From assembly GCA_045546975.1 (NCBI GenBank), contig JAZQDV010000007.1, forward strand, positions 73,176-137,175: a stretch of 64,000 bases of DNA, read 5' to 3'. The stretch is from Eubacteriales bacterium (GTDB taxonomy: Bacteria > Bacillota > Clostridia > Oscillospirales > JAAYXM01). This document shows positions 8,197 through 62,413 of this stretch, piece after piece (the first letter of the stretch is position 1; the number at the start of each line of letters is the position of its first letter). Both the position numbers and the translations under genes were made by a program. The notes below the pieces were generated by a model. The model did not search any database, had not been told where the DNA came from, and saw only the letters and a list, made by a program, of their open reading frames with translations.

Positions 8197-9039
8197 ATGA
8201 CAAAAGCAATAACACAAGATTTAATTGAAAATTTCAAAAACCATTTAATCGACGAAGAAAAAGCTTCTGCCACTCTGGAAAAATACATCCGCGACATCAA
8301 GGCTTTTTATGTGTGGGTTTCAGGACTTGAAATCAGCAAGCGAACTGTCCTTGACTATAAGGAGTATTTAATTGGTACTTTTGCACCGGCTTCAGTCAAT
8401 TCCATGCTGTCATCTCTCAATGCTTTTTTTCAGTTTAATGACTGGCATGAACTGAAGGTGAAAATGCTGAAAATCCAAAAGCGGATTTTTGTGCAAAAGG
8501 ACAGAGAACTCACAAAGGCAGAATATGTGAGGTTACTCAAAGCCGCAAAAGAAAAAAACAACGAACGACTTTATTTGTTGATGCAAACTATATGCTCAAG
8601 CGGAATACGGGTATCCGAACTAAAATATGTAACGGTTGAATCCTTAAAGTCAAGAAGCGCGACTATTAACAACAAAGGCAAAATGAGAATTGTCCTTTTG
8701 CCCGCAAAGCTTTGCAGTACCCTAATGGAATATGCAAAGAGGCAAAAAATATCAAGCGGGTCCGTCTTTGTTACAAAAACAGGTAACCCGCTTGACAGAA
8801 GCACTATCTGGAAAATGATGAAGGCGCTTTGCATGAGAGCTCAGGTTTCTGAGCGGAAGGTGTTTCCGCATAACCTGAGACACCTTTTCGCGCGTACCTT
8901 TTACACACTCGAAAAAGATATTGTAAGACTTGCAGACATTCTCGGACATTCAAGCGTAAACACTTCACGGATATACACAATGGAAACGGGTGAAATACAC
9001 CGAAAGAAACTTCAAAAACTTGGGCTCTTGCAATTATAA
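8197..9039 (+). CDS. Small tyrosine site-specific recombinase (candidate DNA invertase)
   Basis: 280 aa. N-terminal SAM-like core-binding region. Candidate catalytic residues: R in GIRVSEL, HNLRH, LGH, Y in SRIYT. No arm-binding domain. The stop codon is 2 nt from the left recombination site. Confidence 0.9.
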   Translation: MTKAITQDLIENFKNHLIDEEKASATLEKYIRDIKAFYVWVSGLEISKRTVLDYKEYLIGTFAPASVNSMLSSLNAFFQFNDWHELKVKMLKIQKRIFVQKDRELTKAEYVRLLKAAKEKNNERLYLLMQTICSSGIRVSELKYVTVESLKSRSATINNKGKMRIVLLPAKLCSTLMEYAKRQKISSGSVFVTKTGNPLDRSTIWKMMKALCMRAQVSERKVFPHNLRHLFARTFYTLEKDIVRLADILGHSSVNTSRIYTMETGEIHRKKLQKLGLLQL

Positions 9040-9040
9040 A

Positions 9041-9071
9041 AAGCACCACATAATTGAAATTATGTGGTAAG
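9041..9071. repeat. Left recombination site of the invertible segment (AAGCACCACATAATTGAAATTATGTGGTAAG)
   Basis: Palindromic arms ACCACATAA/TTATGTGGT around the asymmetric core TTGAAA. Its partner at 9304-9334 carries TTTCAA. Confidence 0.8.
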
Positions 9072-9303
9072 ACATAACAAATCAGGCATCAAAGGGAACT
9101 AAATTACCGTATGGCAAACGCAAATTTTTTCAAAAAACGACACAGTATTTAGACCGGTCTTGTTGATTTTGTAAAACCGGTCTGCTCCGTTGTGCCATTT
9201 TTAATGCACATTGATGATTTTTTCATAAAATAATTGCGAATCATTGACAAACCCCCTTCGAGCATATTATAATACGTATGCTCGAATATTATTTTGAAAC
9301 AGA
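9072..9303. other. Invertible DNA segment (inverton) carrying a promoter
   Basis: Bounded by the two 31-bp sites, adjacent to the recombinase gene, and contains the 9244-9273 promoter. Confidence 0.7.
9244..9273 (+). promoter_or_regulatory. Near-consensus sigma-A promoter inside the invertible segment, currently facing tetR and the giant gene
   Basis: TTGACA (9244-9249), 18-nt spacer, TATAAT (9268-9273). The -10 element sits in the loop of the CGAGCATA...TATGCTCG hairpin. Confidence 0.7.
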
Positions 9304-9334
9304 AAGCACCACATAATTTCAATTATGTGGTAAG
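9304..9334. repeat. Right recombination site (AAGCACCACATAATTTCAATTATGTGGTAAG)
   Basis: 29/31 identical to 9041-9071. The only differences turn the central TTGAAA into its reverse complement TTTCAA. Confidence 0.8.
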
Positions 9335-10513: not shown

Positions 10514-13500
10514 TTGAGACTTAAAAGAATTATGGCTATGTTCCTTTGCTTTGCAATGGTACTTAGCACAATGGGAACAACAGTATTTGCAGAAAATACT
10601 GCTGTTGTTTCAGCCGAGGCAACCGCCGTTTCGGACAATAATCTGTATGTAAATACAGATTACAATTCCGAGACAGAAGGCTACGGCGTAACAAGATTTG
10701 CCAACTATAATGCGGCATATGCATATGCTGTAGCAAACAACACATCTGCAACCATTGTTGTCGAGAAAAACAACAGTATTTCCGGGTTCTGTTTTGATAA
10801 TAACCACAAGAATTATACTAAACTTGCGGTTGTAATTAAAGATGGAGCCACAATGGGTGTATCGCTTTCAAAGTGGGATATGACCTATCCTGTTACTGTA
10901 GAAGCAGGTGGTACTCTCACATGTGCTCGCCCGAAAAATGCCAGTGTCAGCAACATTCACATTAAGAATAAGCTAATCATTGGTACTGAGGGTTCTGATA
11001 AACAAGCATACTGCTATTTCCTAAGCGACAGCTACCAGGATTGTGATATTAGTATCCGTTACAACGGTTCTATTACTGCATACAATGCCGTTATGACCGT
11101 TCAGGATCTTGATGCACAAGGCAGCTTCACTGCAACCGATAGCAATATCACAGTTGACGGTGCATTCGCATCTGCCACTTGGTATGCTACAACGCTTACT
11201 GATTCGGATATGCAGATCAATGGTAACCAGATCAGCGGTGGCCTATCTGATTTTTCCGGTGGAGATAATAATCAACTCGGAAAAGTAACGCTGAACGGTG
11301 ATTCTTCTATTTCGTTTGCTGAAGGCTCAGCAGTTGATGTAGCGGCTACTGTTACTGTAAACGGAAACTCCTACATTACAGCTGACACGCTGACTGTTGA
11401 GAAAAATAAGAAAATTAACGTCAACGGTACATCTTCTGTAAGTGCTCAGACACTTACAAATAACGGTACCATCGCAACTACAAGCGGATCCACGGTAACT
11501 GCCAAAACAGTGAGCGAGGAATCCACCGGCACCGTAACGATTGACGGTGAAGAAGCTGCGTTTGATGAGAGCGGAAACCTTGTTCTCCCCGCTGCACCTG
11601 TCGCAACTGTCGACGGTGTACCTTACACAGAGCTTCAGGCTGCACTCGATGCGGCTGCAGCAGGCGAAGGCAATGTAACAGTTGAGATCCTTGAAAATAT
11701 CAATCTCACAAATGTTGACTGGAATCCCGTAACCGTAAGCGCTCCCAAATATCCTGTTGTTACTGTTAATGGTAACGGCAAGATAATTACAGGTCTGAAT
11801 GATATGCTCTTTGCGGGCACATGGGCTGGTGGCTCCGGCCTTATCATCAACGACCTTACAATTGCGGACTCCGCTATTATTAATGATAAAGACGATACAA
11901 ACGGCAATGTTGGCGTTGGTGCGTTCATTGGATTCCCCCAGGCAAGTGCAACAGTTACTCTCAACAACTGTCATCTTGTTGACTCCCGTGTTGAAGGTGG
12001 TCACTGGACAGGCGGTCTCATAGGTTATGCAGCAGGTTACGCTGGCAATGACGGTCCTGTATTCATGAATTTGACAATCAACGAGTGCTCCGTTACCGGC
12101 TCCACCATTACCGGTAAGGGCTCTGCAGGCGGTATCATCGGTCATGCTACAGGTAATGCTTGGACACAGGTTACCATCACAGATACAACTGTTTCCGGCA
12201 ATACCGTTGCGTCTACAGGTTCTTCTACCAACAAAGCCGGTGCTGTAATCGGTACTATTGGTGCTGCCGGTCAGGCGACAACTGTTAACGGTGTAGAAAA
12301 AACCGGCGGTGTATCCGTTGCAGCAACAGTTAGCGGTAACACTGTAACATCCAGCAGTACAACAATTACAACAATCTACGGTCGTCAGGGCACCGACACA
12401 GGTATGCTCTATGTATCTGGCGGTGAATATGACAATTATCCGATAGAAGAAAATGTTGCTTACGCTGCTCCTATCGAAGGGTATGAAATTGCAGATAATG
12501 GCAATGGTACTTGGGGCATAGCAGAAGAAACTATTCTCTCCGGCGCAGGTACACAGGAAGATCCTTATCTCATTGAAGATATCGATGACTTGACCCTCTT
12601 TAGAGATAACGTAAACAACGGAACAGATTATGACGGTCAGTATGTAAAGTTGATGAGTGATATCGACCTTACAAGCGTCGAAAACTGGATCCCGATTGGT
12701 GCGTATGGTTCACACGCAAACGAGATGACATTCCGCGGTTATTTTGATGGTAACAACAAAACTATCAGCAATCTGACCGTCAATGACACAACAAGCACAG
12801 CTGATATACTTGGCTTGTTCGGTCATATTCATGGCGACGGTATGAAGAATACTTTGGAGCCGTCTGTCAAGAATCTGACATTGACCAATGTAAACATCTC
12901 AAGCACAGACAGCGCTTCAAGAATCGGCGGTCTTGCAGGTAATCCTTACACATGTTATCTCGAGAATGTACATGTCTCAGGAACTATTTCAGGCGGTAAG
13001 TGGACCGGCGGTATCGCAGGTAACTGTTACACAGTATTTGAAAACTGTTCATTTACCGGAACTGTTGACAGTAACAACCAGGCAGGTGGTATTGCCGGCG
13101 CAGGCGATGCTCGTGTATACAACAGCAAGGTCATCGGTGATATTACCGCTACATATTGGGCAGGCGGTATCATCGGTAACGGTCAGGAAGGCGCTTCTGC
13201 TGTAGGCTGTTATGCAAAGGGTACTGTTACTGCTGAAAGCAACTGGTACTTTGGTGTCGGTGGTATTGCCGGTGTTGGCGGACACGGCTACGAAGGCAGT
13301 GTTTATGAAGATAACTACTTCGACGGTGAAGTATATCTCGGAGAAACCAAGGTAAATGCAATCGTTGTCGGTTTTGTAAACGCAGACGGCAACGAAGCAA
13401 TGAATACAGTTGTAGATGGCAACTCATGGAATACTGAATACTATGCAGCAGATACCCCGGTCGTTGTTACAGCTGATGTAACATCAGATATTTCTCCTGA

Positions 13501-16500
13501 GGACTGGGCAGCGTCCGCATCTGAGGAAAAGAGCTCAGTTCGTAACAACAATCTCGTTATGTTGGAAAGCGACATTCAGTATGTAGATGCAACTTCTATG
13601 GATAATGTTACCATTATGAAGTTCTCTGAGGTAACTGAAGAAGAGGTTGAGGTCCAGATCGAGAAAAACAACCTTGTTGCAAAGATAGGTGAAACCGGAT
13701 TCGCATCTCTCGCAGAAGCTATCGTGGCTGCAAATGCTATGACAGGCGATGTCACTGTTGAAATTTACGCTAAGGTTGAATATAACGACGCAACAGCAAG
13801 CCTTACAGGTGCATATGATTCTATCAACTTTGTTGGTAAAACAGAAGATGCTGAAATTTCTATCACCAGAAATGGCTCTAATGGTTACATTTCAGGCGAG
13901 GGCAATGATTGTAAGGTAACATTTACAGACCTTATTCTTTCAAAGCCCGAAGGGCATTACGCAAATGATGCGGGCTTCATGAACATGGCGTTCAGTGTTT
14001 ACAGAGTTGCCTCTGTCAAATATACGAACTGTCAGTTCCCCAACGGTGCATGTGCGGCAGGATGCCCGACTACATATACAAACTGTACTTTTGAAAAATC
14101 TCACGAAAAGTATGCTTTATGGGCATATGGTACAGAGGTTGTAGTTGACGAGTGTACATTCGATGATGACAGAGGTATAAAGATGTATGCTGAGGGCTCT
14201 GCAAAAACAACCGAACTTACAGTTACGAACACGGACTTCTCTAAATTGACATCAAAGCCTGCTATCGTAGCTACACTCGGCCAGAGCATAACTCTTTCAG
14301 GCAATACATATTCTGCCAAGGGTGTTCTCGAGCTTGAGGATAACGGCAGCTCCAACGGTATTGAAATTACTTCCGAGGATGTTGTGACCTGTATCAGTGA
14401 CGCATATCCGGACGGATGCGGTGTTCTTGTTGACGGTGCCATCTATCGTACTGTTGCAGAAGCAGCAGAAGTTGCAGAGGAAGGCAGCACGGTAACACTT
14501 CTTCACAATTCAACAGAAACAGTTGAACTTTCAGAGGGCGTAACCCTTGACAAGAACGGCTTCACTGCTGACGGTGTAACTGTTAAAGTATCTGTTGCCG
14601 CAAAAATCGGTGAGACATATTACGAGACCGTTCAGGCGGCAATCAATGCGGCGCAGAGTGGCGACACCGTTGAAATTCTCCCCGGAGAATATGACCCTAT
14701 CAACATCAGCAGCAAGAATATCACCATTCAGGGTACCGTAGGTGATAACGGTGAATTGCTTACCACCATCAAGGGCGGCAATCCTGCAATTACCGGCCAC
14801 TCTTTTAACGGTACGATTAAGGATCTTAAGATCGTTGATGCATGGAAGGTTATGTATGCAGAACCGGCAGGAAATATAACCGTTGATAATGTTTATGTAA
14901 CCGGTGCTACATACGGTTTCCACCTTGTAGCTTATTCTGAAGGTCTGACATGGACTATCCAGAATAGCTATATGGATTTGCGTTGGGCAAACTCCTTAGG
15001 TGTATACAAAGACGGTGATGCAGAAATCATCATCAAGGGTAACGAATTTGTTTCAACAGATCCGTACTACTCTGATTACGGTGCTCTTCATGTGAATTCG
15101 TTCTTGCCGAATGTAACTGTTGAAGAGAACATTTTCCGTGAAAACGCAAAGATTTACATCGATGCTTCTGTAACGGACACTTCCAACATCAATATTTCCA
15201 AGAACTATCATGCTGACGGTGTTGAAAATGCATTCGCAGATGATACTGACGGCGTGACGGTAAAAATTGATTCGTACTATACCGTAATAGAAGAAGACGG
15301 TACTCTTTCAGGCCTTGTAGAAGTTGTTGATCCCGCCGCAAAAATCGGCGATACAACATACGAAACACTTGCAGCGGCTATCGCGGCTGTCAAGGAAGGC
15401 GAAACAATCACAATGCTTGCTGATACAACTGTTTCAGAGAATGTTACACTTCCTGCAGGCATTACATTTAACGGTAATGGAAAGAAGATCAGCAGAGAAA
15501 ACGGTGCAATTATTTATGCGGGCGGCGAATTGACATTTGAAGGATATACAACTATTGCTAATTTCAATGCCAACGGCAAAACAATTAACATTGGCGAGGG
15601 TGCAACCCTTGAAACAACTGACGGAAGAATGGTTATCGGTCACGGAGCTACATTTAACATTACAGGCTCGATTGCCGATGCGAAAACTGCAGATGTAACA
15701 AATATTACACCTTCCCTCATTGCCCCCGGAGTATCATTCACAGGTGCAGGTGTGAACTTTAATGTAACAAATGCATATGTTAAATTTACAGCTTACTGTT
15801 CTTCAAAAAACAGTAATGCGAGCGGCACATATAACATTAATGTAAATAACAGCATTTGGGAACAGACAGGTTCTTTGGTTTTCTCAGAGCCTACAAACGG
15901 AATGGACCCGACCTTTAACTTCAAAGTTAAAGACAGCGTACTTAACAGCACAAGCCACCTTGTTTTTGCTGTAACAAAGGGCGAAATCGTTTTTGACAAT
16001 TCTGTTGTAAACGAAGGCGTACACAGACAGCTTGAAAACCGCAGCAACCTGACAATTAAGAACGGTTCTGTTGTTTATGCTGCTCACGCAACAAGCTCCA
16101 ACGCAAAGAATCCCGGCACAACTATCGTTGAAAACGCAACTTACATAGCTACCGGTGATTTTAGTGGCTCGGATGTCGGCACAGGCACACTTATTGTTAA
16201 GAAGGGTGCAATTGTGAATATGGGTAAGATTACCAAGGCAAATATCGTTGTTGACGCAACCGATATGGCTGCCGGCGATGTTGTTGGTATCACAGCTAAC
16301 CTGTCCGCCCTTGAAGGTACAATAAGTGTTGTCAATAACAATCTGGACGCTGAAATTGTAGACGGAGCGATTGTTCTTGTTGAAAAACCAGTTGCACAGA
16401 TTGGTGATGAGAAGTTTGCATCGCTCGAAGAGGCATTCAAAGCAGCAACCGATGGATGTACCATCACTTTGATGAGCGACATTACCGTAAGCGAGCTTTG

Positions 16501-18346
16501 GGATTGCCGTTACAACGGTGCAAAGTTCACTGTTCCTGTAACAATCGACGGTAACAACAAGACACTTAAACTCACGGGCGCAGTTGATGACAAGAACTGG
16601 AACACAGTATTCAGATTTGAGGCTGATGCTACAGTCAAGAACCTTACAATCGACGCGAGTGAAGCAACAGGCATCCAGAGAGGTATCTCTGCTAAGTCAA
16701 GCATTACTGTTGAAAACTGCACATTCATAGGTAACGGAACATCAACAAAGCGCGGTGTTATCTTCGGTGAAGGCGCAGGCACAGCACTTTCCGATGTAGT
16801 TGCAACAATTACAAACTCCAAATTCACAAATTGGAGCTATGGCGTTTCTGATAACCAGAGCGGTAAGGATGCAAAGTCTGTTTCTGTTACAGGCTCTACC
16901 TTCATTAACGCAAGCGCACTCTTGAGTGCTTCCGACTCGGTAACATTTACAGGCAATACTGTATCAGACGGTTATGTAAATATCACTTCTTACACCGCAG
17001 CTGATACTGCTACTGTTGTTGCAACAGGCAACAATCTTGTAGGCACTGATGATGAAATTACTGTAAATCCCGAAAACATAACCTCAGATGATTCATTCAT
17101 TACTCCTGTTGCCAAGATTGGCTCTAAGTATTATGAGACCTTAGATAAAGCAATCAGCAAGGCAGCAGTTGGTGACACAGTTGTTCTTTTAACTGATGTT
17201 GAGCTTTCGGATACAATTACAATTCCTACTGACAAGAAGATTACTCTTGACTTAAGCAGCAAGACAATCACAGGTACAGATAATACTGAAAAGAATTTCA
17301 GTCTTATCGATAACCGCGGTGATCTTACCATTACAGGAAACGGTACTATGACTCTTACTGCTACCGTCAACTCCGGATGGAACCGTTACTCTGCAGTTCT
17401 TGCAAACAACCCCGGCGGTAAGCTTACCATTGAAAACGGTACGTTTGAGCACCTCGGTGGCACCGATATGGCTTACGGTATTGACAACCTTACAAACGGC
17501 AAGGGAACCTATGCTGAAACCATAATTAACGGCGGTACAATCAAGTCCACTTACCGTGGTATCCGTCAGTTCCTCAACGGTATTGAAGCACAGAACATTC
17601 TCACAGTTAACGGCGGTACTGTTGAAGGCACTAACAAGTCTATCTGGATGCAGGATCCGAACAAGAACGCAAACACAGGTACACTTACTGTTACTGATGG
17701 CGCTACCTTGAACGGCGACGTGTATCTGACTGTAACAGAAGGTTCTACCGAATGGCCTGTTGAAGTAAGCATTGCTAAATCAGCAGTAAACGGACAGGTT
17801 CTTACTAATGGAAACGAGCCTGCAGGATATGAGCTGGTTGAAGAAAACGGAACCTACGGCGTAATAGAAAAAGAAATAGTAACTCCGTTCAAGGACGCTC
17901 CGTTGTTCTTGGCAGGACTTCCGGATGAAGTTATTGACGGTGTAACATACCACCCCGTTTATATGGCAACCTCTATTGATTCATTGAATTATAGAAAGGT
18001 CGGATTTGATTACACCTTCTCAATTTTCGATACTGAAACAGGCGAGGTTACTTTCTCGGTACCGTATACAACCGAAACAAGTGAGGTATACTCTTCTATC
18101 AGCGATGCTAATACAACATATACAGTTGACAGCATTGGCGGAAACGGTGAATACTTGTTTATGAATAAGTTGCTGTTCCACGCAGAACATTATCACAACA
18201 ATAACACAAAGGTTACCATCACACCGTACGCTATTGATACGAACGGAAACAAAATCACCGGCTGGACAATTGATATGACAAATGAATTCTATAAGTCACT
18301 TCAGTCTGGTGATGTAAAACAGGATATGTTCAAGGAGGGAAACTAA
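10514..18346 (+). CDS. Giant secreted surface protein (2610 aa) with GLUG-like motif blocks and multiple parallel beta-helix-type modules
   Basis: AGGAGG RBS 10 nt before the TTG start. Signal peptide MRLKRIMAMFLCFAMVLSTMGTTVFA|ENT. Two blocks of GG[LI][IA]G motifs. At least 6 recurrences of the module cap V-A-[KQ]-I-G-x-x-x-[YF]-x-[ST]-L-x-x-A. No LPXTG, SLH or dockerin seen. Confidence 0.9.
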   Translation: MRLKRIMAMFLCFAMVLSTMGTTVFAENTAVVSAEATAVSDNNLYVNTDYNSETEGYGVTRFANYNAAYAYAVANNTSATIVVEKNNSISGFCFDNNHKNYTKLAVVIKDGATMGVSLSKWDMTYPVTVEAGGTLTCARPKNASVSNIHIKNKLIIGTEGSDKQAYCYFLSDSYQDCDISIRYNGSITAYNAVMTVQDLDAQGSFTATDSNITVDGAFASATWYATTLTDSDMQINGNQISGGLSDFSGGDNNQLGKVTLNGDSSISFAEGSAVDVAATVTVNGNSYITADTLTVEKNKKINVNGTSSVSAQTLTNNGTIATTSGSTVTAKTVSEESTGTVTIDGEEAAFDESGNLVLPAAPVATVDGVPYTELQAALDAAAAGEGNVTVEILENINLTNVDWNPVTVSAPKYPVVTVNGNGKIITGLNDMLFAGTWAGGSGLIINDLTIADSAIINDKDDTNGNVGVGAFIGFPQASATVTLNNCHLVDSRVEGGHWTGGLIGYAAGYAGNDGPVFMNLTINECSVTGSTITGKGSAGGIIGHATGNAWTQVTITDTTVSGNTVASTGSSTNKAGAVIGTIGAAGQATTVNGVEKTGGVSVAATVSGNTVTSSSTTITTIYGRQGTDTGMLYVSGGEYDNYPIEENVAYAAPIEGYEIADNGNGTWGIAEETILSGAGTQEDPYLIEDIDDLTLFRDNVNNGTDYDGQYVKLMSDIDLTSVENWIPIGAYGSHANEMTFRGYFDGNNKTISNLTVNDTTSTADILGLFGHIHGDGMKNTLEPSVKNLTLTNVNISSTDSASRIGGLAGNPYTCYLENVHVSGTISGGKWTGGIAGNCYTVFENCSFTGTVDSNNQAGGIAGAGDARVYNSKVIGDITATYWAGGIIGNGQEGASAVGCYAKGTVTAESNWYFGVGGIAGVGGHGYEGSVYEDNYFDGEVYLGETKVNAIVVGFVNADGNEAMNTVVDGNSWNTEYYAADTPVVVTADVTSDISPEDWAASASEEKSSVRNNNLVMLESDIQYVDATSMDNVTIMKFSEVTEEEVEVQIEKNNLVAKIGETGFASLAEAIVAANAMTGDVTVEIYAKVEYNDATASLTGAYDSINFVGKTEDAEISITRNGSNGYISGEGNDCKVTFTDLILSKPEGHYANDAGFMNMAFSVYRVASVKYTNCQFPNGACAAGCPTTYTNCTFEKSHEKYALWAYGTEVVVDECTFDDDRGIKMYAEGSAKTTELTVTNTDFSKLTSKPAIVATLGQSITLSGNTYSAKGVLELEDNGSSNGIEITSEDVVTCISDAYPDGCGVLVDGAIYRTVAEAAEVAEEGSTVTLLHNSTETVELSEGVTLDKNGFTADGVTVKVSVAAKIGETYYETVQAAINAAQSGDTVEILPGEYDPINISSKNITIQGTVGDNGELLTTIKGGNPAITGHSFNGTIKDLKIVDAWKVMYAEPAGNITVDNVYVTGATYGFHLVAYSEGLTWTIQNSYMDLRWANSLGVYKDGDAEIIIKGNEFVSTDPYYSDYGALHVNSFLPNVTVEENIFRENAKIYIDASVTDTSNINISKNYHADGVENAFADDTDGVTVKIDSYYTVIEEDGTLSGLVEVVDPAAKIGDTTYETLAAAIAAVKEGETITMLADTTVSENVTLPAGITFNGNGKKISRENGAIIYAGGELTFEGYTTIANFNANGKTINIGEGATLETTDGRMVIGHGATFNITGSIADAKTADVTNITPSLIAPGVSFTGAGVNFNVTNAYVKFTAYCSSKNSNASGTYNINVNNSIWEQTGSLVFSEPTNGMDPTFNFKVKDSVLNSTSHLVFAVTKGEIVFDNSVVNEGVHRQLENRSNLTIKNGSVVYAAHATSSNAKNPGTTIVENATYIATGDFSGSDVGTGTLIVKKGAIVNMGKITKANIVVDATDMAAGDVVGITANLSALEGTISVVNNNLDAEIVDGAIVLVEKPVAQIGDEKFASLEEAFKAATDGCTITLMSDITVSELWDCRYNGAKFTVPVTIDGNNKTLKLTGAVDDKNWNTVFRFEADATVKNLTIDASEATGIQRGISAKSSITVENCTFIGNGTSTKRGVIFGEGAGTALSDVVATITNSKFTNWSYGVSDNQSGKDAKSVSVTGSTFINASALLSASDSVTFTGNTVSDGYVNITSYTAADTATVVATGNNLVGTDDEITVNPENITSDDSFITPVAKIGSKYYETLDKAISKAAVGDTVVLLTDVELSDTITIPTDKKITLDLSSKTITGTDNTEKNFSLIDNRGDLTITGNGTMTLTATVNSGWNRYSAVLANNPGGKLTIENGTFEHLGGTDMAYGIDNLTNGKGTYAETIINGGTIKSTYRGIRQFLNGIEAQNILTVNGGTVEGTNKSIWMQDPNKNANTGTLTVTDGATLNGDVYLTVTEGSTEWPVEVSIAKSAVNGQVLTNGNEPAGYELVEENGTYGVIEKEIVTPFKDAPLFLAGLPDEVIDGVTYHPVYMATSIDSLNYRKVGFDYTFSIFDTETGEVTFSVPYTTETSEVYSSISDANTTYTVDSIGGNGEYLFMNKLLFHAEHYHNNNTKVTITPYAIDTNGNKITGWTIDMTNEFYKSLQSGDVKQDMFKEGN

Positions 18347-26945: not shown

Positions 26946-29774
26946 ATGAGTAAAGAAATTTTTATTAAAGGTGCAAGAGAGCACAACTTAAAAAACATAG
27001 ATGTTAAAATCCCGCGCGACAGCCTTGTTGTCGTTACTGGGCTTTCAGGCTCGGGTAAGTCAAGCCTTGCCTTTGATACTGTCTATGCAGAGGGCCAGAG
27101 GCGGTATGTGGAGTCTCTCTCATCATACGCAAGAATGTTCCTCGGCAGGATGGAAAAGCCGGATGTCGACTACATTGAGGGGCTCTCTCCCGCTATATCC
27201 ATTGACCAGAAAACGACATCAAAAAACCCGCGTTCTACAGTAGGAACGGTTACGGAAATTTACGACTATCTCCGTCTTTTGTGGGCGAGAGTAGGCACTC
27301 CCCACTGCCCCGTATGCGGAAAGGTCATTGAGCAGCAGACGGTTGACCAGATTTGCGACAGGATAATGGAGCTTGCTGAGGGTACCAAGTTCCAGATTCT
27401 CGCACCCGTTGTGCGCGGTCGCAAGGGTGAGCACGAAAAGGTTTTTGAGAACGCGAAGAAGTCTGGCTTTGTGCGCGCAAGGGTAGATGGCAATCTGTAT
27501 GACCTTTCAGAGACAATAAAGCTTGAAAAGAATAAAAAGCACAATATTGAGATTATAATCGACCGCCTCGTTATAAAGAGCGGCATTGAGATGCGCCTTG
27601 CAGACTCTATCGAGACTGCGACAAACCTTGCAGGCGGACTTGTTCTTGTCGATGTTATCGGTGGAGAGGAACTTTCATTCTCTCAGAACTATGCCTGCGA
27701 TGATTGCGGAATAAGCATAGAGGAGCTCACTCCGCGCATGTTCTCCTTCAACAACCCCCACGGCGCATGCCCTGAGTGTGCAGGTCTCGGCTCACTTTTG
27801 CGTGTTGATCCCGATTCGATAATCCCCGATAAGTCGAAGTCAATTCTTGACGGTGCGATACACGCATCGGGCTGGGGAAACCCTATACCCGGCTCAATTT
27901 CGCGTATGTACTACGACGGTCTTGCAAAGGTCTATAGCTTTGACCTTTCTACCCCCGTGTGCGATATTCCGGAAGCGGCATATAACGCTCTCCTCTACGG
28001 TACGGGTGGCGAAAAAATCCCCCTGCATTACGACAAATCGTACGGAAAGGGCGATTATACTCAGGCTTTTGAAGGCCTCGTTGCAAACCTTGAGCGCAGA
28101 TACCACGAGACTGCAAGTGAATACTCAAAGGCAGAGATTGAGGAGTGTATGATAAATACACCCTGCCCTAAATGTAACGGAAAAAGGCTTCGAGCAGAGG
28201 CACTTGCAGTTACCGTTGGCGGTATAAATATCGCCGAAATGTGCGAAAAGTCAGTTGTTGACGCACTCAAATTTATATGCGAGGTTGAAGATACCCTTAC
28301 GCAAAGGCAGAAAAAAATAGCTGAGCTTATTCTCCGCGAGATTAAGGCAAGACTCGGCTTTCTCGAGAGTGTTGGACTTTCATACCTCACACTTTCAAGA
28401 AGTGCCGGCACTCTTTCGGGCGGCGAGAGTCAGAGAATACGCCTTGCAACTCAGATAGGTTCTTCTCTTATGGGTGTTTTATATATCCTTGACGAGCCGT
28501 CAATCGGTCTTCATCAGAAGGACAACGCGAAGCTTCTCACGACTCTTGAAAGACTTCGCGACCTCGGAAACACGCTTATCGTTGTTGAACACGACGAGGA
28601 CACTATGCGCGCAGCTGACCACATTATTGATGTCGGACCGGGCGCAGGTGTTCACGGCGGTGAGATTGTAGCAAGCGGTACAATCTCCGATATAATCGCG
28701 CAGCCACGCTCAATCACAGGCCAGTACCTCTCAGGCAAAAAGACCATCCCCGTCCCCGAGGTACGCCGCAGCGGAAACGGAAAGTTTATTGAAATCCGAG
28801 GCGCAAAGGAAAACAACCTCAAAAACATAGACGTTAAAATCCCGCTTGGAAAACTCACCTGCATCACGGGTGTTTCCGGCTCAGGAAAGAGCTCACTCAC
28901 AAACGAAATCCTCTATAAACATCTTGCAGCGTGTCTCAACGGTGCAAAAACGCATCCTGGAAAGTTTGATGAGTTTCGCGGCATAGAGCACCTTGATAAG
29001 ATTATAGACATCGACCAGTCACCTATCGGGCGCACTCCGCGTTCAAACCCGGCAACATACACGGGCGTTTTCGGAGATATACGAAGTCTCTTTGCGATGA
29101 CGCCCGATGCAAAAATGCGCGGATACACAAGCGGTCGCTTCTCATTTAACGTAAAGGGCGGAAGGTGTGAGGCATGCGCAGGTGACGGCGTAAACAAAAT
29201 TGAGATGCATTTTCTCCCCGATATTTATGTCACCTGTGATGTGTGCCACGGTATGAGATACAACCGTGAAACGCTCGAGGTAAAATATAAGGGCAAGAAT
29301 ATAGCAGAGGTTCTTGATATGACGTGTGAAGAGGCATATGAGTTCTTCCGCCATGTTCCAAAAATTGCAAGCAAGCTCAAAACACTCAACGACGTTGGTC
29401 TTGGATATATAAAGCTCGGCCAGTCCTCCACCACCTTGTCCGGAGGCGAGGCACAGCGAGTAAAGCTTGCAACAGAGCTCTCTCGTCGCAGTACGGGAAA
29501 AACCATATACATCCTTGACGAGCCGACAACAGGTCTTCACGTTGCAGACGTACACAGGCTCATCGATATGCTCTCGCTCCTTACCGATGCCGGCAATACG
29601 GTAGTTGTCATCGAGCACAATCTTGATGTTATAAAGACCGCAGACCATATCATCGACCTCGGTCCCGACGGCGGTGACGGTGGCGGCAGAATTGTCTGCG
29701 AAGGAACACCCGAGGAAGTCGCAAAGTGTAAAAAATCATACACCGGCGAATATCTTAAAAATATATTGAAGTAG
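26946..29774 (+). CDS. uvrA: Excinuclease ABC subunit A
   Basis: 942 aa. Two ABC modules ([12 protein letters not shown] and [10 protein letters not shown]), zinc-finger cysteines, LSGGE signatures. Confidence 0.95.
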
Positions 29775-42106: not shown

Positions 42107-42142
42107 AAAAAATGCTCTCTGTAATTACAGAGAGCATTTTTA
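42107..42142. terminator. Bidirectional terminator
   Basis: AAAAATGCTCTCTGTA-AT-TACAGAGAGCATTTTT. Confidence 0.8.
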
Positions 42143-42150
42143 TTGAATAT

Positions 42151-42381
42151 TTAATCATCCTCCAGCAATTTGGAAGGTGAAATGTTCAAAACTTGAGATA
42201 TTTTGAAGAGTGTTTCCAAAGATACACCACGGATAGTGCCTGTACCTTCAATTTGTCCAACGAAATTCACACTCTTTCCTATAAGCTCCGCAAAGGTTTC
42301 CTGCGTATATCCGCATTTCTTTCTATAGTAAGCAATTTTCAAGCCCAAAGTTATATACCGTTCCGGAAATTCAGTCTTCAT
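42151..42381 (-). CDS. XRE-family helix-turn-helix transcriptional regulator
   Basis: 76 aa. YYRKKCGYTQETFAELIGKSVNFVGQIE is a Cro/C1-type HTH. Confidence 0.85.
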   Translation of the reverse strand: MKTEFPERYITLGLKIAYYRKKCGYTQETFAELIGKSVNFVGQIEGTGTIRGVSLETLFKISQVLNISPSKLLEDD

Positions 42382-42454
42382 ATCACACCTCCTCCGTCTG
42401 TTTATATTCTATCAATAAAGAAGGTGGATTATAATTGATTACTATTCTATTTTT

Positions 42455-42484
42455 ATTTACTTTAAGTAAATAATATTGTATAAT
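42455..42484 (+). promoter_or_regulatory. Promoter of the SLOG/DUF1273-like gene with an overlapping 17-bp palindromic operator
   Basis: TTTACT, 17-nt spacer, TATAAT (42479-42484). The palindrome ATTTACTTTAAGTAAAT (42455-42471) covers the -35. A half-site ATTTACTT recurs at 42497-42504. Confidence 0.55.
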
Positions 42485-42521
42485 GATTAAAATATCATTT
42501 ACTTCAAGGAGAATGGGTGCG

Positions 42522-43031
42522 ATGAGGAATACCTGTTGCTTTTTCGGACACCGAAAAATCTATATAACGGATGAGCTGATATCAAAACTGCACAATGTCA
42601 TTGAAAAACTAATTATCGACAACGATGTTGATTGTTTTCTTTTTGGCAGCAAAAGTCAATTTAACGATTTATGCTACCAAATTGTCAGTGAAATAAGAGT
42701 TTGCTACCCCTATATAAAAAGAATTTATGTCAGAGCACATTTTCCTCACATTGACGACAGTTATAAATCCTATTTGCTTCAGGGATATGAGGAAACTTAT
42801 TACCCAAGAAATATAATAAAAGCGGGTAAGTTAGCTTATATTATGAGAAACCGTGAAATGATAGACAAAAGCGAGTTTTGCGTAGTATATTTAGACGAAA
42901 ACTATATACCGATCAAACGGAATAGAGAAGGCATGGATTTGACTGTTCATAGCCCTAAAAGCGGCACGAAACTCGCCTATGATTATGCACTAAAAAAGCA
43001 GAGGACTGTCATAAACATTTTCATAAAATAA
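42522..43031 (+). CDS. DUF1273/SLOG-like protein
   Basis: N-terminal CCFFGHRK matches the DUF1273 (YpsA/YoqJ) signature. Start set at the ATG 10 nt after AGGAG. Confidence 0.65.
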   Translation: MRNTCCFFGHRKIYITDELISKLHNVIEKLIIDNDVDCFLFGSKSQFNDLCYQIVSEIRVCYPYIKRIYVRAHFPHIDDSYKSYLLQGYEETYYPRNIIKAGKLAYIMRNREMIDKSEFCVVYLDENYIPIKRNREGMDLTVHSPKSGTKLAYDYALKKQRTVINIFIK

Positions 43032-43045
43032 AAGACTGAACGGAA

Positions 43046-43309
43046 GGGTGGCGCTTCATAGGGATAAAACGCCAAAAAACCACGATTTTGGCACATAACT
43101 GCATCAAAAAAGCTCCCAACCCGTCAGGGTTGCGAGCTTTTTAATCTTGTTCTGCACTCAAACTTATGATTTTTTGGTGCAAAGCAGTTTTGGGTTAGAT
43201 ATTTTTCGAATTAGAGAAATTAAAAAATGCGGACATACTGACGTATGTCTGTATTTTTTTGTGTACTATAAACGAAAAAGAGCAAGCCAAAACCGTATTC
43301 TCCCTATGA
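43046..43309 (+). mobile_element. 264-bp MITE-like non-autonomous element, copy A
   Basis: Terminal inverted repeats GGGTGGCGCTTCATAGGGA...TCCCTATGAAGCACCACCC. Two internal terminator-like hairpins. No credible ORF. Inserted in the loop of the hairpin AAAAGACTGAACGG/CCGTTCAGTCTTTT. A second copy lies at 61440-61713. Confidence 0.75.
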
Positions 43310-43345
43310 AGCACCACCCAAACCGTTCAGTCTTTTGTCTTTTTG

Positions 43346-43801
43346 TTAGTCTTCGCAGTGGCAGGAGCAACCCCCGTCGCACTCGTCATCAGCAAGGTCG
43401 TCAAGGTCAAACTCAAGCTCTTCACCGCAACCCGGGCAGGAGATGGTACCGAGGGCAAGAATGTCCTCATCAACCATAATGGAATCTCCGCAGGTCGGGC
43501 ATACAACTTCGTAGTGGAAGTCGTCGCAGTCGCAGTCGCAGTCGCAGTCATCGCCACAGTCGCAATCGTCACCGCAAGTGCCGTCATCAAATGCGCCCTC
43601 AAGCTCCAAAAGCTCTTCTGCAACTTCATCGAGCTCATCGCTCATTTCATCTGTGATATCTTCAAGATCTGCAACGGATGCTGCAAGCTCATCGATAACG
43701 TCTACAATAGCAAGGAGAAGCTTCCCTTCCTTTGTGTCAGAATCAATGTCAAGCCCGTCGCAAAGGCCACGAAGATATGCTGCTCTTTCAATTATATCCA
43801 T
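43346..43801 (-). CDS. Highly acidic zinc-ribbon protein with a Cys-Asp repeat (resembles the clostridial CD1247-type family found next to efp)
   Basis: GGAGGA RBS. 151 aa. CPTCG...CPGCG zinc ribbon. The CDCGDDCDCDCDCDD tract is encoded by (GTCGCA)4. Immediately upstream of efp. Confidence 0.7.
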   Translation of the reverse strand: MDIIERAAYLRGLCDGLDIDSDTKEGKLLLAIVDVIDELAASVADLEDITDEMSDELDEVAEELLELEGAFDDGTCGDDCDCGDDCDCDCDCDDFHYEVVCPTCGDSIMVDEDILALGTISCPGCGEELEFDLDDLADDECDGGCSCHCED

Positions 43802-57630: not shown

Positions 57631-57691
57631 CCCGTAAAGTCCAAAGTCCGCTTTACGATAGATAAATAAATACAGATAAGGGGTTGATAGT

Positions 57692-58420
57692 ATGAAAAGG
57701 AACATTAAATGGACTGTTCTCTCGCTTGTGATTCTTTTTGCGCTTCCGCTTTTGGTCGCAAAGTTTGCAGGCACAAGCGGAATGGCACTTTGCTTTATAA
57801 TGTTCTTTGCCGTCAACCCTGTATTTTTTATTGCTGAGGGCATTTCCTCAGGTAAAGATATCAAACGGCATTGGTTTATGCCACTTGTTTCGGCGCTTAT
57901 ATATCTGCTGTCCACGTGGATAGTATTTGATATGGGCGAAACCGCTTTTGTGCTTTATTCCGGCATTTACCTTGCAATAGGTATTATTGTAATGTTAATC
58001 ACATCGGCAATATGCTATATCTCCGCAAAAAAAGAAATTCCAAAAGAGAGAATCACAATCTACGCAGTACTTACTTTATTCCTGATTGTATTTGTAGCCA
58101 TTATAACGGTTTTGGGAGTGTGGAAGCACAACAGAACCTTTACCGTTCACAGATGGATGGAAAATGTCGAGAACAGACACCACATAGTTAACAATATGCT
58201 TTCAAAGCACAAGCTTGTTGGTATGACCGAAAAGGAAATCATTGAACTTCTCGGCGAGGAAACTGAACACGCACCAGAGAGCTTCAAATATCCCCGAGGG
58301 GAGTTTCCGGACGAAAGCACGCTTACATATTATCTCGGTGTGGATTTTATGGATAATAATTGGCTTATTATTTCTATCGAAAATGGCAAAGCAACAAGTT
58401 ATAAAATAGGTCTTACATAA
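57692..58420 (+). CDS. Membrane protein with a C-terminal BamE/SmpA-like small domain
   Basis: Five predicted TM helices, then GMTEKEIIELLGEE, reminiscent of SmpA/OmlA-type folds. First gene of a tightly spaced 4-gene operon. Confidence 0.55.
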   Translation: MKRNIKWTVLSLVILFALPLLVAKFAGTSGMALCFIMFFAVNPVFFIAEGISSGKDIKRHWFMPLVSALIYLLSTWIVFDMGETAFVLYSGIYLAIGIIVMLITSAICYISAKKEIPKERITIYAVLTLFLIVFVAIITVLGVWKHNRTFTVHRWMENVENRHHIVNNMLSKHKLVGMTEKEIIELLGEETEHAPESFKYPRGEFPDESTLTYYLGVDFMDNNWLIISIENGKATSYKIGLT

Positions 58421-58433
58421 GGAGAAATGTAGT

Positions 58434-59378
58434 ATGAATAAAAAAGTATTGATAATAAGTTTAGTGATATGCTCTTTATTTCTTGCTGCCTGTCAGCATG
58501 ATTTGCCGCTGAATGAAACTGCCGAAATCGATGAGCAAGGCGTAATCAAAGGTCAGTTCGGTGAGCAGCTTGAAAAGAAGCCTATCAGAATGTTTAATGT
58601 TGACGGTGATTTGTATTACGATTCAGGACTTGTGAGCGAAAGCACTCCCCGTTGCGGAACGATGGATGGAGAGCTTACAAATACCGTTTCCGAAAACGAA
58701 ATACCTCTTAAATCAGGAGAAGCAAACTTCGATATTGACGGTTATCAGCACGCAACAAGTATTACAAAAGAAGTAAATATAGATGGCAAATGGCTTATTT
58801 TCAAGAAATATAACACCTATGAAAAAAACCTTGAAGATTTGAAATATTGCTATTACATAAAAGGTCATTTGAACAATGCTGCAGTAGATAGTGAATTTGT
58901 AGTTTTAACAGATAACATAAATGTTACTTTTAATGATGTCATTTCACCGATGTTAAGTTTTGTGAAAGAAAACGATAACAACGACTATCGTATATCCCAT
59001 AATATGATTGTATCCGGCGATAAATGGGGTATCACACTCTATACTGATAATGTAACTCCAAAAGGATTAACATTAAAAATTGAGCAGTTCGGTGGTAATC
59101 CTTCAGGAACCCTTGAATACGGAACACCATACACTCTTGAAACAACGGTTGATGATGAATGGCAAGAAGTGAAAACAATAACCGGTGAGCCTTTGGTTTG
59201 GACTCTGCCCGCTTATGGCATTAAGATGAACGACATTACGGAAATGAATATAAATTGGGAATATGGCTACGGAAAATTAAAGCCCGGTTTTTACCGTCTT
59301 AGGAAAGAAATCATGGACTTCAGAGAAAGCGGAGATTACGATAAGGAAACCTACGAGGTATATTTTACTATTGAGTAA
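58434..59378 (+). CDS. Lipoprotein, unknown function
   Basis: AAGGAGA RBS. Lipobox LFLAAC|Q. 314 aa. Confidence 0.6.
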   Translation: MNKKVLIISLVICSLFLAACQHDLPLNETAEIDEQGVIKGQFGEQLEKKPIRMFNVDGDLYYDSGLVSESTPRCGTMDGELTNTVSENEIPLKSGEANFDIDGYQHATSITKEVNIDGKWLIFKKYNTYEKNLEDLKYCYYIKGHLNNAAVDSEFVVLTDNINVTFNDVISPMLSFVKENDNNDYRISHNMIVSGDKWGITLYTDNVTPKGLTLKIEQFGGNPSGTLEYGTPYTLETTVDDEWQEVKTITGEPLVWTLPAYGIKMNDITEMNINWEYGYGKLKPGFYRLRKEIMDFRESGDYDKETYEVYFTIE

Positions 59379-59391
59379 GGAGGAATGACAA

Positions 59392-60894
59392 TTGAGAAAA
59401 TATGTAGGCTACATTCCGGCGGTACTCTTTACTGCATTTTATCTGTTTTCAGGACTTTCCGGAGTAAGTTTAACAATGCCAATGATCGTGTTTTGGCTTG
59501 TTTGCTTTTGGGTTTCTGCCTTTCTCCTGCACAAAGGTCTGTTCTGGGGCGGGGTGTTCGGTTTCGTTCCTGCGATAAATATGCTTTATATGGGCGGTGG
59601 ATATAGGGGACAAGTCATAAATATTGAAATCCCCTTAGGTGTTTTGTTATTGCTATTTTATGTACTCTTTGGCATATATCTTTGGAAGAAAAGGCGCGAC
59701 GCCGCTGCCCTCAAAGTAGAAACCAAGGAAATAGTCCTTTTGGCAGTCAAGTTTTTACTTACAATTGCGGTTATAATGATAAGCGCCTATATCGGTGTGC
59801 TGTCAAGTCTGATACTGACCTCAGAAGGCATACACAGTGCTATTGTTTTCGTTGGTGCATTGCTTCTCCCCTCTTTGCTATTTCCTCTGATATGGCTGAA
59901 GAAGAGAAAGCGCTTCTTCCTTATATGGCTTGCACCCGCCCTTGTTTATTTTATCGTCTTGGGCATTAACTACGGAATCGTCAGGTACGACAAGAGCATT
60001 ACCGTAGACACAGCACCAAACATTAATGTACATGAATATCTCCCGTTTAAGGAAGATTCAAAAATAGTAAAGCTCAATAGTAAAACGCTGAAGTTCACAG
60101 ATAATTTACCGATAATTGACGGTGCGGCGGCACTGTTTCCTGTTTACTCCGCATTTGTCAATGCGACATATCCTGACACAACGGAACTTCGTTATGACGG
60201 TCCTTTCCAGTATAACAACACTCCCGACGGTTACCGTCTTTTAGCGGAAAAGCAAACGGATATCTTCATCGGCGTTTACCCGTCTGAAGAGCAGCAGGCG
60301 TACGCAGAACATCGTAATACAACTTTCCGATACACACCTATCGGAGCGGAGGGCTTTGTGTTCTTTGTCCACAAGGATAACCCGATTGACAATCTCACAA
60401 CAGAGCAGCTTCGGGGTATTTATTCAGGTGAGATAACTAATTGGAGTGAGGTCGGCGGTAAAAACGAAAAGATTGAGGCCTTCCAACGAAACGAGGGTAG
60501 CGGAAGCCAGAGTATGCTGAAAAGGTTTATGGGCGACAAGCCCATAATGGATGCACCTAAAGAGCTCCGAAACGATTTGATGGTGGGTATTATTGAGAGA
60601 GTATCCAACTACAAGAGCAAAACCAATTCTATCGGCTTCTCGTTCAGATTTTATGTTGAGGGCATTATAAAGAATCCCGATATAAAAATGGTTTCCATCG
60701 ACGGTGTTGCACCTACGGCAGAGAACATCAAAAGCGGCAAATATCCCGTTGTGACGCCGATATATGCAGTAACGTATGAAGAACAACCAAGTGAAAATGT
60801 TTCTCGACTTCTTGATTGGATTCTTTCAGACGAAGGACAGTACATTATTGAAGAAACCGGCTATGTCGGTATAGTATCGGACTTTGCAGAATAA
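59392..60894 (+). CDS. Polytopic membrane domain fused to a PstS-family (phosphate-type) periplasmic binding domain
   Basis: About 200 aa with 6 TM helices, followed by a PBP domain. Contains IDGAAALFPVYSAF and NLTTEQLRGIYSGEITNWSEVGG. Confidence 0.65.
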   Translation: MRKYVGYIPAVLFTAFYLFSGLSGVSLTMPMIVFWLVCFWVSAFLLHKGLFWGGVFGFVPAINMLYMGGGYRGQVINIEIPLGVLLLLFYVLFGIYLWKKRRDAAALKVETKEIVLLAVKFLLTIAVIMISAYIGVLSSLILTSEGIHSAIVFVGALLLPSLLFPLIWLKKRKRFFLIWLAPALVYFIVLGINYGIVRYDKSITVDTAPNINVHEYLPFKEDSKIVKLNSKTLKFTDNLPIIDGAAALFPVYSAFVNATYPDTTELRYDGPFQYNNTPDGYRLLAEKQTDIFIGVYPSEEQQAYAEHRNTTFRYTPIGAEGFVFFVHKDNPIDNLTTEQLRGIYSGEITNWSEVGGKNEKIEAFQRNEGSGSQSMLKRFMGDKPIMDAPKELRNDLMVGIIERVSNYKSKTNSIGFSFRFYVEGIIKNPDIKMVSIDGVAPTAENIKSGKYPVVTPIYAVTYEEQPSENVSRLLDWILSDEGQYIIEETGYVGIVSDFAE

Positions 60895-60908: not shown

Positions 60909-61421
60909 ATGAAGAAAATGGCATGGGTTTTATTGATAATAGTTCTCCTGGCTATTGGCGGATGCAAAGACAAAAAGGACCTCTATCTCCCCGAAGCGAA
61001 AAACGATAAAGTATTTACCACCATTGGCGGTGAAGATACGACACATCAGGGCGACGGTTATACCTTGACTGTGACTGCAAAGAATTACCGTTACGAAAAG
61101 GACTATGACGACGGTAATTTAGAAGAGGCGTGGGACTACACAAAAAAAGAAGATGTAGAAATCAGAGTCACAACATATAAAAACTCGGATGAGATCTCTG
61201 CAAGACGCAGATTCTTAAGGGAGAACGATGACTATATCTTTGAGGACTTAACCGGTTTTTCTGTTTGCGGAATCGAGCCCGACGGAGATACATTGTGGTT
61301 TAATATTCATGAAGCAAACGGAACAGTCTATATTGTTTCGTGGGAATATCCAAAAAACACAAAGGAAAATCTGAAAAATGAACTTGCCCAAATAGCGCAA
61401 ACTTTCAAGACAGTAAATTGA
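60909..61421 (+). CDS. Lipoprotein, unknown function
   Basis: AAGGAG RBS. Lipobox LAIGGC|K. 170 aa. Confidence 0.6.
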   Translation: MKKMAWVLLIIVLLAIGGCKDKKDLYLPEAKNDKVFTTIGGEDTTHQGDGYTLTVTAKNYRYEKDYDDGNLEEAWDYTKKEDVEIRVTTYKNSDEISARRRFLRENDDYIFEDLTGFSVCGIEPDGDTLWFNIHEANGTVYIVSWEYPKNTKENLKNELAQIAQTFKTVN

Positions 61422-61439
61422 GAAAATCCCGTACACATT

Positions 61440-61713
61440 GGGTGGTGCTTCATAGGGAGAATACGGTTTTTGATTGCTCTTTTTCGTTTATAGTGCACAA
61501 AAAAATACAGACATACGTCAGTATGTCCGCATTTTTTAATTTCTCTAATTCGAAAAATATCTAACCCAAAACTGCTTCGCACCAAAAAATCATAAGTTTG
61601 AGTGCAGAACAAGATAAAAAAGCTCGCAACCCTGACGGGTTGGGAGCTTTTTTGATGCAGTTATGTGCCAAAATCGTGGTTTTTTGGCGTTTTATCCCTA
61701 TGAAGCGCCACCC
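61440..61713 (-). mobile_element. 264-bp-class MITE-like element, copy B (inverted relative to copy A)
   Basis: The reverse complement matches 43046-43309 with about 5 substitutions (counted by eye). Inserted in the loop of a different hairpin, AAAATCCCGTACACA/TGTGTACGGGATTT. Confidence 0.75.
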
Positions 61714-61738
61714 TTTGTGTACGGGATTTATTTTCATT

Positions 61739-62413
61739 TTAACCGTTTGTTGCGTTACCGTCGCCGGAAACGGGGATTTTCTCCCCAAGGAAAGTTGGTT
61801 CGGGCTTATATATTGTCTTTAAGAAATCCTTGCACCTTGCAAGAATTTCGCGTGCTTCACGGTATGATTGCCCTCGATACGTCCGATAATCAGCGTCTAC
61901 GCCATATACTTCAATACCAAGCTTTTCGGCAATATACAAAGCTCGGTACAGGTGATACTTTTGCGTCACAACTATAATCTTATCGGCATCAAAAACTTCC
62001 TTTGCGCGGTACATACTCTCGTATGTTGAAAAGCCTGCGTGGTCCATGAAAATATCATCCGAGGGAATTTGCGAATCAAGAGCTACCTGCTTCATTGTAT
62101 TTACTTCGTCATACACCTTTCTTCCGTGGTCCCCGCTCATAATTATTTTGGGTGCCGCGCCCCCGTTGTAGAGTGCAATTCCTCTTTTCAGTCTGTCCGC
62201 AAGCATATCGCTCGGTTTTCCGTCGTCCTTGACCTGACATCCCAGCACCACGATACAGTCAATGTCGCGAAGTTCCATTGCTTCTTCGGGAGTAAGGATA
62301 TTTTCGCCGCCAACGTTCTTTACATGAGCGTTTATGGTAAAAACCGTTACTGCCCCCAAAATTACGAGGCCAAGAAGCGCAATTATAATTTTTTTAAGAA
62401 CTTTTTTCTTCAT
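61739..62413 (-). CDS. SanA/YdcF (DUF218) family protein
   Basis: N-terminal TM anchor. Contains IVVLGC...DRL and VTQKYHLYRALY motifs. Confidence 0.78.
   Translation of the reverse strand: MKKKVLKKIIIALLGLVILGAVTVFTINAHVKNVGGENILTPEEAMELRDIDCIVVLGCQVKDDGKPSDMLADRLKRGIALYNGGAAPKIIMSGDHGRKVYDEVNTMKQVALDSQIPSDDIFMDHAGFSTYESMYRAKEVFDADKIIVVTQKYHLYRALYIAEKLGIEVYGVDADYRTYRGQSYREAREILARCKDFLKTIYKPEPTFLGEKIPVSGDGNATNG

Follow-up and report, generated by a model that had tools for sequence, protein, structure and literature searches.

Within the 64-kb stretch of DNA analyzed here (the window), about 11% of which is non-coding, a repeat of 274 bp lies between two convergent genes (copy A), and a second copy of it (copy B) lies between another pair of convergent genes. 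The left-hand neighbor of copy A encodes a 182-aa hypothetical protein that matched no Pfam or NCBIfam family; the label "SLOG-like", which a first reading made from the sequence alone had attached to it, is thus without profile support from either collection. The right-hand neighbor encodes an acidic protein with a zinc ribbon. The convergent arrangement of these two genes, as described in the sequence-only reading, was borne out, and so was the layout that it gave for the flanks: the sequence runs AAAAGACTGAACGG-AA-element-AAA-CCGTTCAGTCTTTT, in which the outer arms form a perfect 14-bp inverted repeat. We refer to this pair of arms as hairpin A and to the equivalent pair around copy B as hairpin B. 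The coordinates of all these features are collected in Table 1.

Table 1 Features of the two insertion loci and internal organization of the element.
Feature	Position in window	Strand	Position in element	Remarks
182-aa hypothetical gene	42483..43031	+		Transcript runs into copy A; absent from relatives L009 and L010
Left arm, host terminator hairpin A (AAAAGACTGAACGG)	43030..43043	+		Overlaps stop codon of 182-aa gene
AA dinucleotide	43044..43045	+		Between left arm A and element; possible loop remnant or single copy of a 2-bp target duplication
Left terminal inverted repeat	43046..43071	+	1-26	26 bp; 18/19 and 23/26 positions match the right end
Imperfect palindrome P1	43072..43177		27-132	About 106 bp
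Spacer			133-140	8 nt
Imperfect palindrome P2	43186..43293		141-248	About 108 bp
Right terminal inverted repeat	43294..43319	+	249-274	26 bp; pairs with left end
AAA	43320..43322	+		Between element and right arm A
Right arm, host terminator hairpin A (CCGTTCAGTCTTTT)	43323..43336	+		10 nt from stop codon of zinc-ribbon gene
Acidic gene, CD1247 N-terminal domain and zinc ribbon	43346..43801	-		Convergent on copy A
170-aa gene	60909..61421	+		Convergent on copy B; 171-aa orthologue flanks the empty site
Arm, host terminator hairpin B (AAATCCCGTACACA on plus strand)	61424..61437	+		2 nt past stop codon of 170-aa gene
Element copy B	61440..61713	-		274 bp, inverted relative to copy A
Other arm, host terminator hairpin B (TGTGTACGGGATTT)	61716..61729	+		
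DUF218/YdcF gene	61739..62413	-		Convergent on copy B; 83%-identical orthologue flanks the empty site

The 182-aa gene is itself divergent from a gene encoding an XRE-type HTH protein (42151-42381, minus strand), and the two make up a small two-gene island that adjoins copy A (window 42142-43029). Both genes are missing at the same place in two relatives, L009 and L010, where the zinc-ribbon gene directly faces a polysaccharide deacetylase gene.

Copy A occupies positions 43046-43319, its first letters being GGGTGGCGCTTCATAGGGATAAAACGCC and its last letters CCGTATTCTCCCTATGAAGCACCACCC. The start had been placed at the same nucleotide in the sequence-only reading, which also recognized imperfect terminal inverted repeats with 18 of 19 matching positions and a similarity extending to about 26 nt; we count 18/19 and 23/26. 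The right-hand coordinates of that reading were 10 bp short, as it gave an element of 264 bp ending at 43309 and closed the whole feature at 43326, inside the right arm of the hairpin. When the window was scanned with the terminal-repeat 19-mer GGGTGGYGCTTCATAGGGA, allowing at most 3 mismatches, we retrieved 4 sites (0.05 expected), which are the two ends of copy A and the two ends of copy B. The copies are 98.2% identical across 278 nt, and the identity breaks off at an AA dinucleotide on both sides. They differ by five substitutions (element positions 98, 136, 219, 241, and 243), which are uninformative on structure and none of which falls in the terminal inverted repeats.

Copies A and B constitute an inverted pair 18 kb apart that could mediate inversion of the segment of housekeeping genes between them (efp, aroQ, and others). 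An inversion between the copies was considered and rejected, because the gene order is collinear with that of the relatives L010, L013, and L016 on both sides.

Between its terminal repeats the element is made up of two imperfect palindromes, P1 and P2, each bearing at its apex one of the two A-run/hairpin/T-run structures that had been pointed out in the sequence-only reading, and both were scored as terminator-like in a consensus scan. The apex of P1, AGCTCCCAACCC-GTCA-GGGTTGCGAGCT (43111-43138), is flanked by A6 and T5 runs and is terminator-like on both strands (43117-43132). That of P2, GACATAC-TGAC-GTATGTC (43232-43249), is flanked by A6 and T7 runs and is terminator-like on the minus strand (43249-43232); on the plus strand, the T7 run begins 3 nt past the stem. 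Copy B contains the same terminator-like hairpins, and the consensus scan found no promoter-like site inside either copy. Together with the host arms, the element is predicted to fold at about -137 kcal/mol on either strand, compared with -66 to -69 kcal/mol for shuffled sequences (z about -14). The element matched no family of Rfam 15, in which the gathering scan of the window passed two tRNAs only, and the best match in a permissive scan of the element (E = 0.017) was far below the family threshold. The earlier statement that the element has no credible ORF also stands: the ORFs at 43147-43479 and 61328-61612 merely read through it and have their first ~57 aa in common (~50 aa in the earlier estimate), and a concatenated six-frame query of the element against 5.8 billion proteins matched no predicted protein.

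A transcript coming from either of the neighboring genes would meet a terminator-like hairpin after about 70-100 nt and would be expected to end there, so the 3' ends of the genes are probably preserved despite the insertion, on the evidence of consensus terminator scans only.

At copy B, the flanks read AAATCCCGTACACA-AA-element-AA-TGTGTACGGGATTT in the orientation of the element, with arms that are again perfect over 14 bp. This copy is therefore also found at the apex of a hairpin, and the stem of hairpin B is unrelated in sequence to that of hairpin A. Judging by the source names of homologues, the window comes from an Oscillospiraceae-type bacterium, and a protein with 100% identity to the DUF218 protein (P0121) is encoded on a 203-kb NCBI contig. 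The most informative comparison came from a sister species, the RecR-region contigs of which show 88-90% nucleotide identity to the window. Its orthologue of the DUF218 protein (P0122, 83% identical) is encoded on L013, L014, and L015, three Logan contigs that each come from a different sample, and on all of them the gene is followed by the orthologous convergent gene for a 171-aa protein. All three contigs carry hairpin B unbroken, AAATCCCGTACACA-TT-TGTGTACGGGATTT, between these same two genes, where each of them has the sequence ...TAAggcgaaaatAAATCCCGTACACAttTGTGTACGGGATTTtatcag.... Both arms of this empty site are identical to those of the window at 14/14 positions; the spacer next to them has accumulated differences. 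In L016, which is more distantly related, the DUF218 gene is followed by an intact hairpin, CCCCGTACAC-ttaagagat-GTGTACGGGG. Two further relatives, L025 and L026, have a different gene context and are uninformative.

The genes on the far side of the 170-aa gene were compared as well. From the aldo/keto reductase gene to the 170-aa gene, the window (57631-60894) contains a Big_14-domain gene and a 500-aa PBP_like_2 gene, whereas a DUF2651 gene only is present between the aldo/keto reductase and 171-aa genes of the sister species (L013 919-2749).

The unbroken hairpin B of the sister species shows that the arms are host DNA and that the element was inserted into the loop. Hairpin B is thus ancestral, the repeat is an insertion, and the insertion point of copy B is the loop of a pre-existing hairpin. 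The sequence-only reading had proposed a landing in the loop of a terminator hairpin and had recommended a search for empty sites in related strains, which succeeded at the copy-B locus on the three sister-species contigs and supported the proposal for this copy. It had also cautioned that the hairpin flanks might turn out to be part of the repeat itself; they are not, as the arms differ between copies A and B, and those of hairpin B occur in the sister species with no element between them.

For copy A, no strict empty site was present in the closest relatives L009 and L010, which lack the XRE and 182-aa genes. In these two relatives (L009 shows 85% nucleotide identity), a single intact bidirectional terminator of different sequence directly follows the 3' end of the zinc-ribbon gene. 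By analogy with copy B, we infer that copy A was likewise inserted into the loop of its hairpin.

Comparison of the filled and empty sites at the copy-B locus revealed a net gain of 276 bp, i.e. 274 + 2, such that removal of the element and one AA restores the sister-species length exactly. This gain is the length predicted by a 2-bp target duplication. We infer such a duplication, which is unproven because the element is flanked by AA on both sides but the empty loop reads TT; a simple target duplication would need an extra event, either a flip of the loop or two substitutions. Three options are possible. The loop may have differed in the ancestor of the window lineage (by two substitutions or a loop flip, in a spacer that has diverged by about 25%), a duplication of TT may have been followed by a flip of the DNA that the 14-bp arms enclose, or the AA may be carried by the element and the loop removed, as in a mild version of the apical deletion made by IS1272. 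The data behind all three options are two copies and one empty site.

We then asked how the two target sites compare with other hairpins of the window. Both insertions are located at the center of perfect 14-bp hairpins with unrelated stems and a loop of 2-5 nt. Apart from hairpins A and B, the window contains 19 perfect hairpins whose arms measure 10 bp or more, all different from each other and most of them with the A-run/stem/T-run organization of bidirectional terminators, so that 2 out of 21 hairpins are occupied. The arms of hairpins A and B are unique in the window and are not members of a repeated REP family. The loop positions of the hairpins amount to 80 nt, corresponding to 0.125% of the window and to 1.1% of its non-coding part (roughly 7 kb). 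If two insertions occurred at random, the probability of both hitting a loop would be about 1.6e-6 in the whole window or about 1.3e-4 in its non-coding DNA only. With two cases, a target preference is indistinguishable from the survival of harmless insertions alone.

Short sequence elements are also common to the two sites. The octamer AAAATAAA occupies positions -21 to -14 relative to the element's left end (43021-43028, and 61730-61737 on the minus strand), and TTTT is found at +14 to +17 on the right. With two sites only, these may be just the A/T tracts of bidirectional terminators, or they may be part of the recognized target.

In order to find further members of the family and a possible source of transposase, several collections were searched with the terminal repeats. 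The exact 19-mer retrieved one isolated match from GTDB genomes (in Rubrobacter) and four from JGI metagenomes, none of them with a second end or an extension, and no match from IMG/VR; a 16-mer core gave eight isolated chance matches of the same kind in IMG/VR. These isolated matches lie in high-GC or unrelated DNA and are taken as chance occurrences. Using blastn with the element and with each end, nothing was retrieved from plasmid and phage collections, and the fetched loci of relatives contained no further copy. No transposase was identified among the window ORFs of at least 280 aa, and the window contains no further terminal-repeat match. No autonomous partner sharing the terminal inverted repeats was found in the window or in the GTDB, JGI, IMG/VR, plasmid, and phage collections, and the known copies of the element are two, both within the 64-kb window. 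With no relative among the searched public collections, the element is best read, from its sequence, as a new MITE family, and its mode of insertion would be a variant of known structure-dependent transposition.

We consider it fairly probable that the element is a non-autonomous DNA transposon (MITE), 274 bp long and of a new family, that carries its own terminators and is mobilized in trans by a transposase preferring hairpins or palindromes. It is small and non-coding, it has terminal inverted repeats, and it occupies a site that is empty in a relative. This MITE would have entered two bidirectional intrinsic terminators, unrelated to one another and located between convergent genes, at the apical loop, leaving both 14-bp arms intact, one on each side. 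Both copies have sharp, identical ends and terminal inverted repeats of 26 bp, which point to mobilization in trans by a transposase, presumably of the DDE type and encoded elsewhere. As two different stems were struck exactly at their center, this enzyme may recognize palindromic or hairpin (cruciform) geometry rather than sequence, and it would probably cut the center of the hairpin with a 2-nt stagger. The terminator-like hairpins of the element would then stop transcripts arriving from either gene, rendering the insertion nearly harmless.

A bolder and distinctly more tentative proposal is that the new MITE family homes to the apical loops of terminators by structure and not by sequence, splits the hairpin where IS1272 would delete it and IS1630 duplicate it, and brings its own pair of bidirectional terminators as a replacement, a self-contained "safe-harbour" strategy of a DNA parasite whose host genome is gene-dense. 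In that case, the replacement of TT by its complement (AA..AA) would reflect either an unusual way of joining or a flip of the arm-bounded DNA.

The main competitor is the same MITE with no target preference. The element would land more or less at random, and the only insertions to survive would be those in the terminator loops of convergent gene pairs, since these disrupt no gene or promoter and the element's own terminators maintain 3'-end formation. Such an explanation fits a compact genome with about 11% non-coding DNA, in which convergent genes are separated by short, mostly hairpin spacers (41-56 bp in relatives), and it fits an element that carries terminator-like hairpins. We nevertheless find it unlikely: two loop insertions are improbable even within non-coding DNA (about 1e-4), both are centered on a 2-5-nt loop with arms of equal length (14 bp), and Firmicute insertion sequences are known to target hairpins mechanistically (PMC4923244, PMC5678879).

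Spread without any transposase appears quite improbable. Template switching or repair at stalled hairpins would copy the element from apex to apex through microhomology of the A/T runs, for which the strong self-folding described above (on either strand), the A-run junctions, the replacement rather than plain duplication of the loop dinucleotide (TT to AA..AA), and the failure to find a transposase partner in the collections searched could be cited. Well-conserved 26-bp terminal repeats and identical, sharp ends in both copies are, however, typical of transposase recognition, and identical boundaries at two loci would be hard to obtain from 2-nt microhomology. Even less weight can be given to a primarily functional module, i.e. 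a gene for a structured small RNA or a portable cassette acting as a bidirectional terminator, which is selected at gene 3' ends and mobile only incidentally. Both copies are indeed at gene 3' ends, with a strong predicted structure and two terminator-like hairpins, but there is neither an Rfam match nor a promoter-like site inside the element, the sister species lacks it at the copy-B locus, and two copies provide no covariation evidence; we regard this reading as very improbable. Finally, perfect arms of an equal 14 bp at both copies might suggest that the flanking inverted repeats were made by the insertion (as an inverted target duplication) or are borne by the element, which is hardly credible given that the arm sequences differ between copies A and B, that hairpin B is complete without the element in the sister species (refuting the idea for copy B), and that a diverged form of it exists in L016.

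Two classes of known transposons were also tried as a source of the element and rejected. An IS200/IS605-type or IS110-type (bridge-RNA) origin does not agree with the presence of true terminal inverted repeats and with two targets that differ in sequence. A miniature element of the Tn3 type would be expected to show a 5-bp duplication, which is absent, and only one end has what we take to be a vague resemblance to Tn4430.

Among the known systems to which the favored MITE can be compared, IS1272 and TnSha1 (IS1182 family, staphylococci) undergo a structure-dependent "stem-loop replacing" transposition into hairpins or intrinsic terminators that vary in size and share no sequence consensus. 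It leaves no clear target duplication, and the targets are usually just downstream of genes (PMC4923244, PMC5678879). The element resembles them in its Firmicute host and in target hairpins of unrelated sequence. In contrast, IS1272 removes the stem-loop in part or in full, whereas here both 14-bp arms are kept and only the 2-nt loop differs. Furthermore, IS1272 is autonomous, about 1.9 kb long, and bounded by 16-bp inverted repeats, compared with 274 bp, no coding capacity, and 26-bp inverted repeats for the element, to which no IS1182-type transposase is linked. The model presented for these transposons includes a third outcome, in which joining occurs at the loops and only the loop is duplicated (PMC5678879), and this loop-joining outcome would be the best fit for the element.

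Inverted repeats of variable sequence are the targets of IS1630 according to a title cited in PMC2853133. IS1630 (like ISMhom-1, an IS30-type sequence of mycoplasmas) duplicates the whole inverted repeat (16-26 bp), resulting in a full hairpin on each side. The element differs by splitting the hairpin, with one arm per flank and at most 2 bp duplicated. Canonical IS30 generates a 2-3-bp duplication and has palindromic hot spots. It would fit better than IS1630 with regard to the central geometry and the 2-bp gain in length, but the dinucleotide does not match the empty site.

Palindromes of the REP type are targets of IS1397, ISKpn1, and members of five insertion-sequence families (PMC1525189). 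The element is similar to IS1397 and ISKpn1 (IS3 family) in being inserted inside an extragenic palindrome (PMC1525189); their targets, however, belong to one repeated REP family recognized by the transposase, whereas the terminators hit here are unique and have unrelated stems. As for other miniature elements, Correia, RUP, Nezha, Chunjie, and SPRITE are small, AT-rich, intergenic, and non-coding, with terminal inverted repeats and stable stem-loops, and SPRITE has a Rho-independent terminator-like motif (PMC10969869, PMC3184786). Compared with these MITEs, the layout terminal repeat-palindrome-palindrome-terminal repeat with two internal bidirectional terminators is particular to the element, and no MITE inserted at a hairpin apex is described in these two reviews of bacterial MITEs (PMC10969869, PMC3184786).

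Two other repeat-associated features were observed elsewhere in the window. A gene for a 280-aa tyrosine recombinase (8197-9039, Pfam Phage_integrase) is directly followed by a pair of 24-bp inverted repeats, ACCACATAATTGAAATTATGTGGT (9045-9068) and ACCACATAATTTCAATTATGTGGT (9308-9331), whose complementarity is perfect. These enclose 239 nt with a near-consensus TTGACA-N18-TATAAT promoter, which points at an ORF of 2610 aa with no Pfam match (10514-18346). Altogether, the region from 8197 to 9331 looks like an invertible-promoter (phase-variation) switch. The second feature is a 47-nt direct repeat, 83% identical (26969-27015 and 28799-28845), inside a 942-aa ORF (26946-29774), and is probably an ordinary internal gene duplication, such as two ATP-binding modules.

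In summary, elements of this kind break short-read assemblies and give rise to spurious ORFs (two in this window), and a pair of inverted copies could invert the 18-kb segment between them. If the proposed explanation is correct, landing in terminator loops and substituting for the function thereby interrupted would let a mobile element spread through a compact genome nearly free of cost. If the preference for the apex is mechanistic, structure-dependent transposition into terminators would have a third outcome, the splitting of the hairpin, besides its deletion by IS1272 and its duplication by IS1630, and a transposase able to sense hairpin or cruciform geometry whatever the sequence would be of mechanistic interest.
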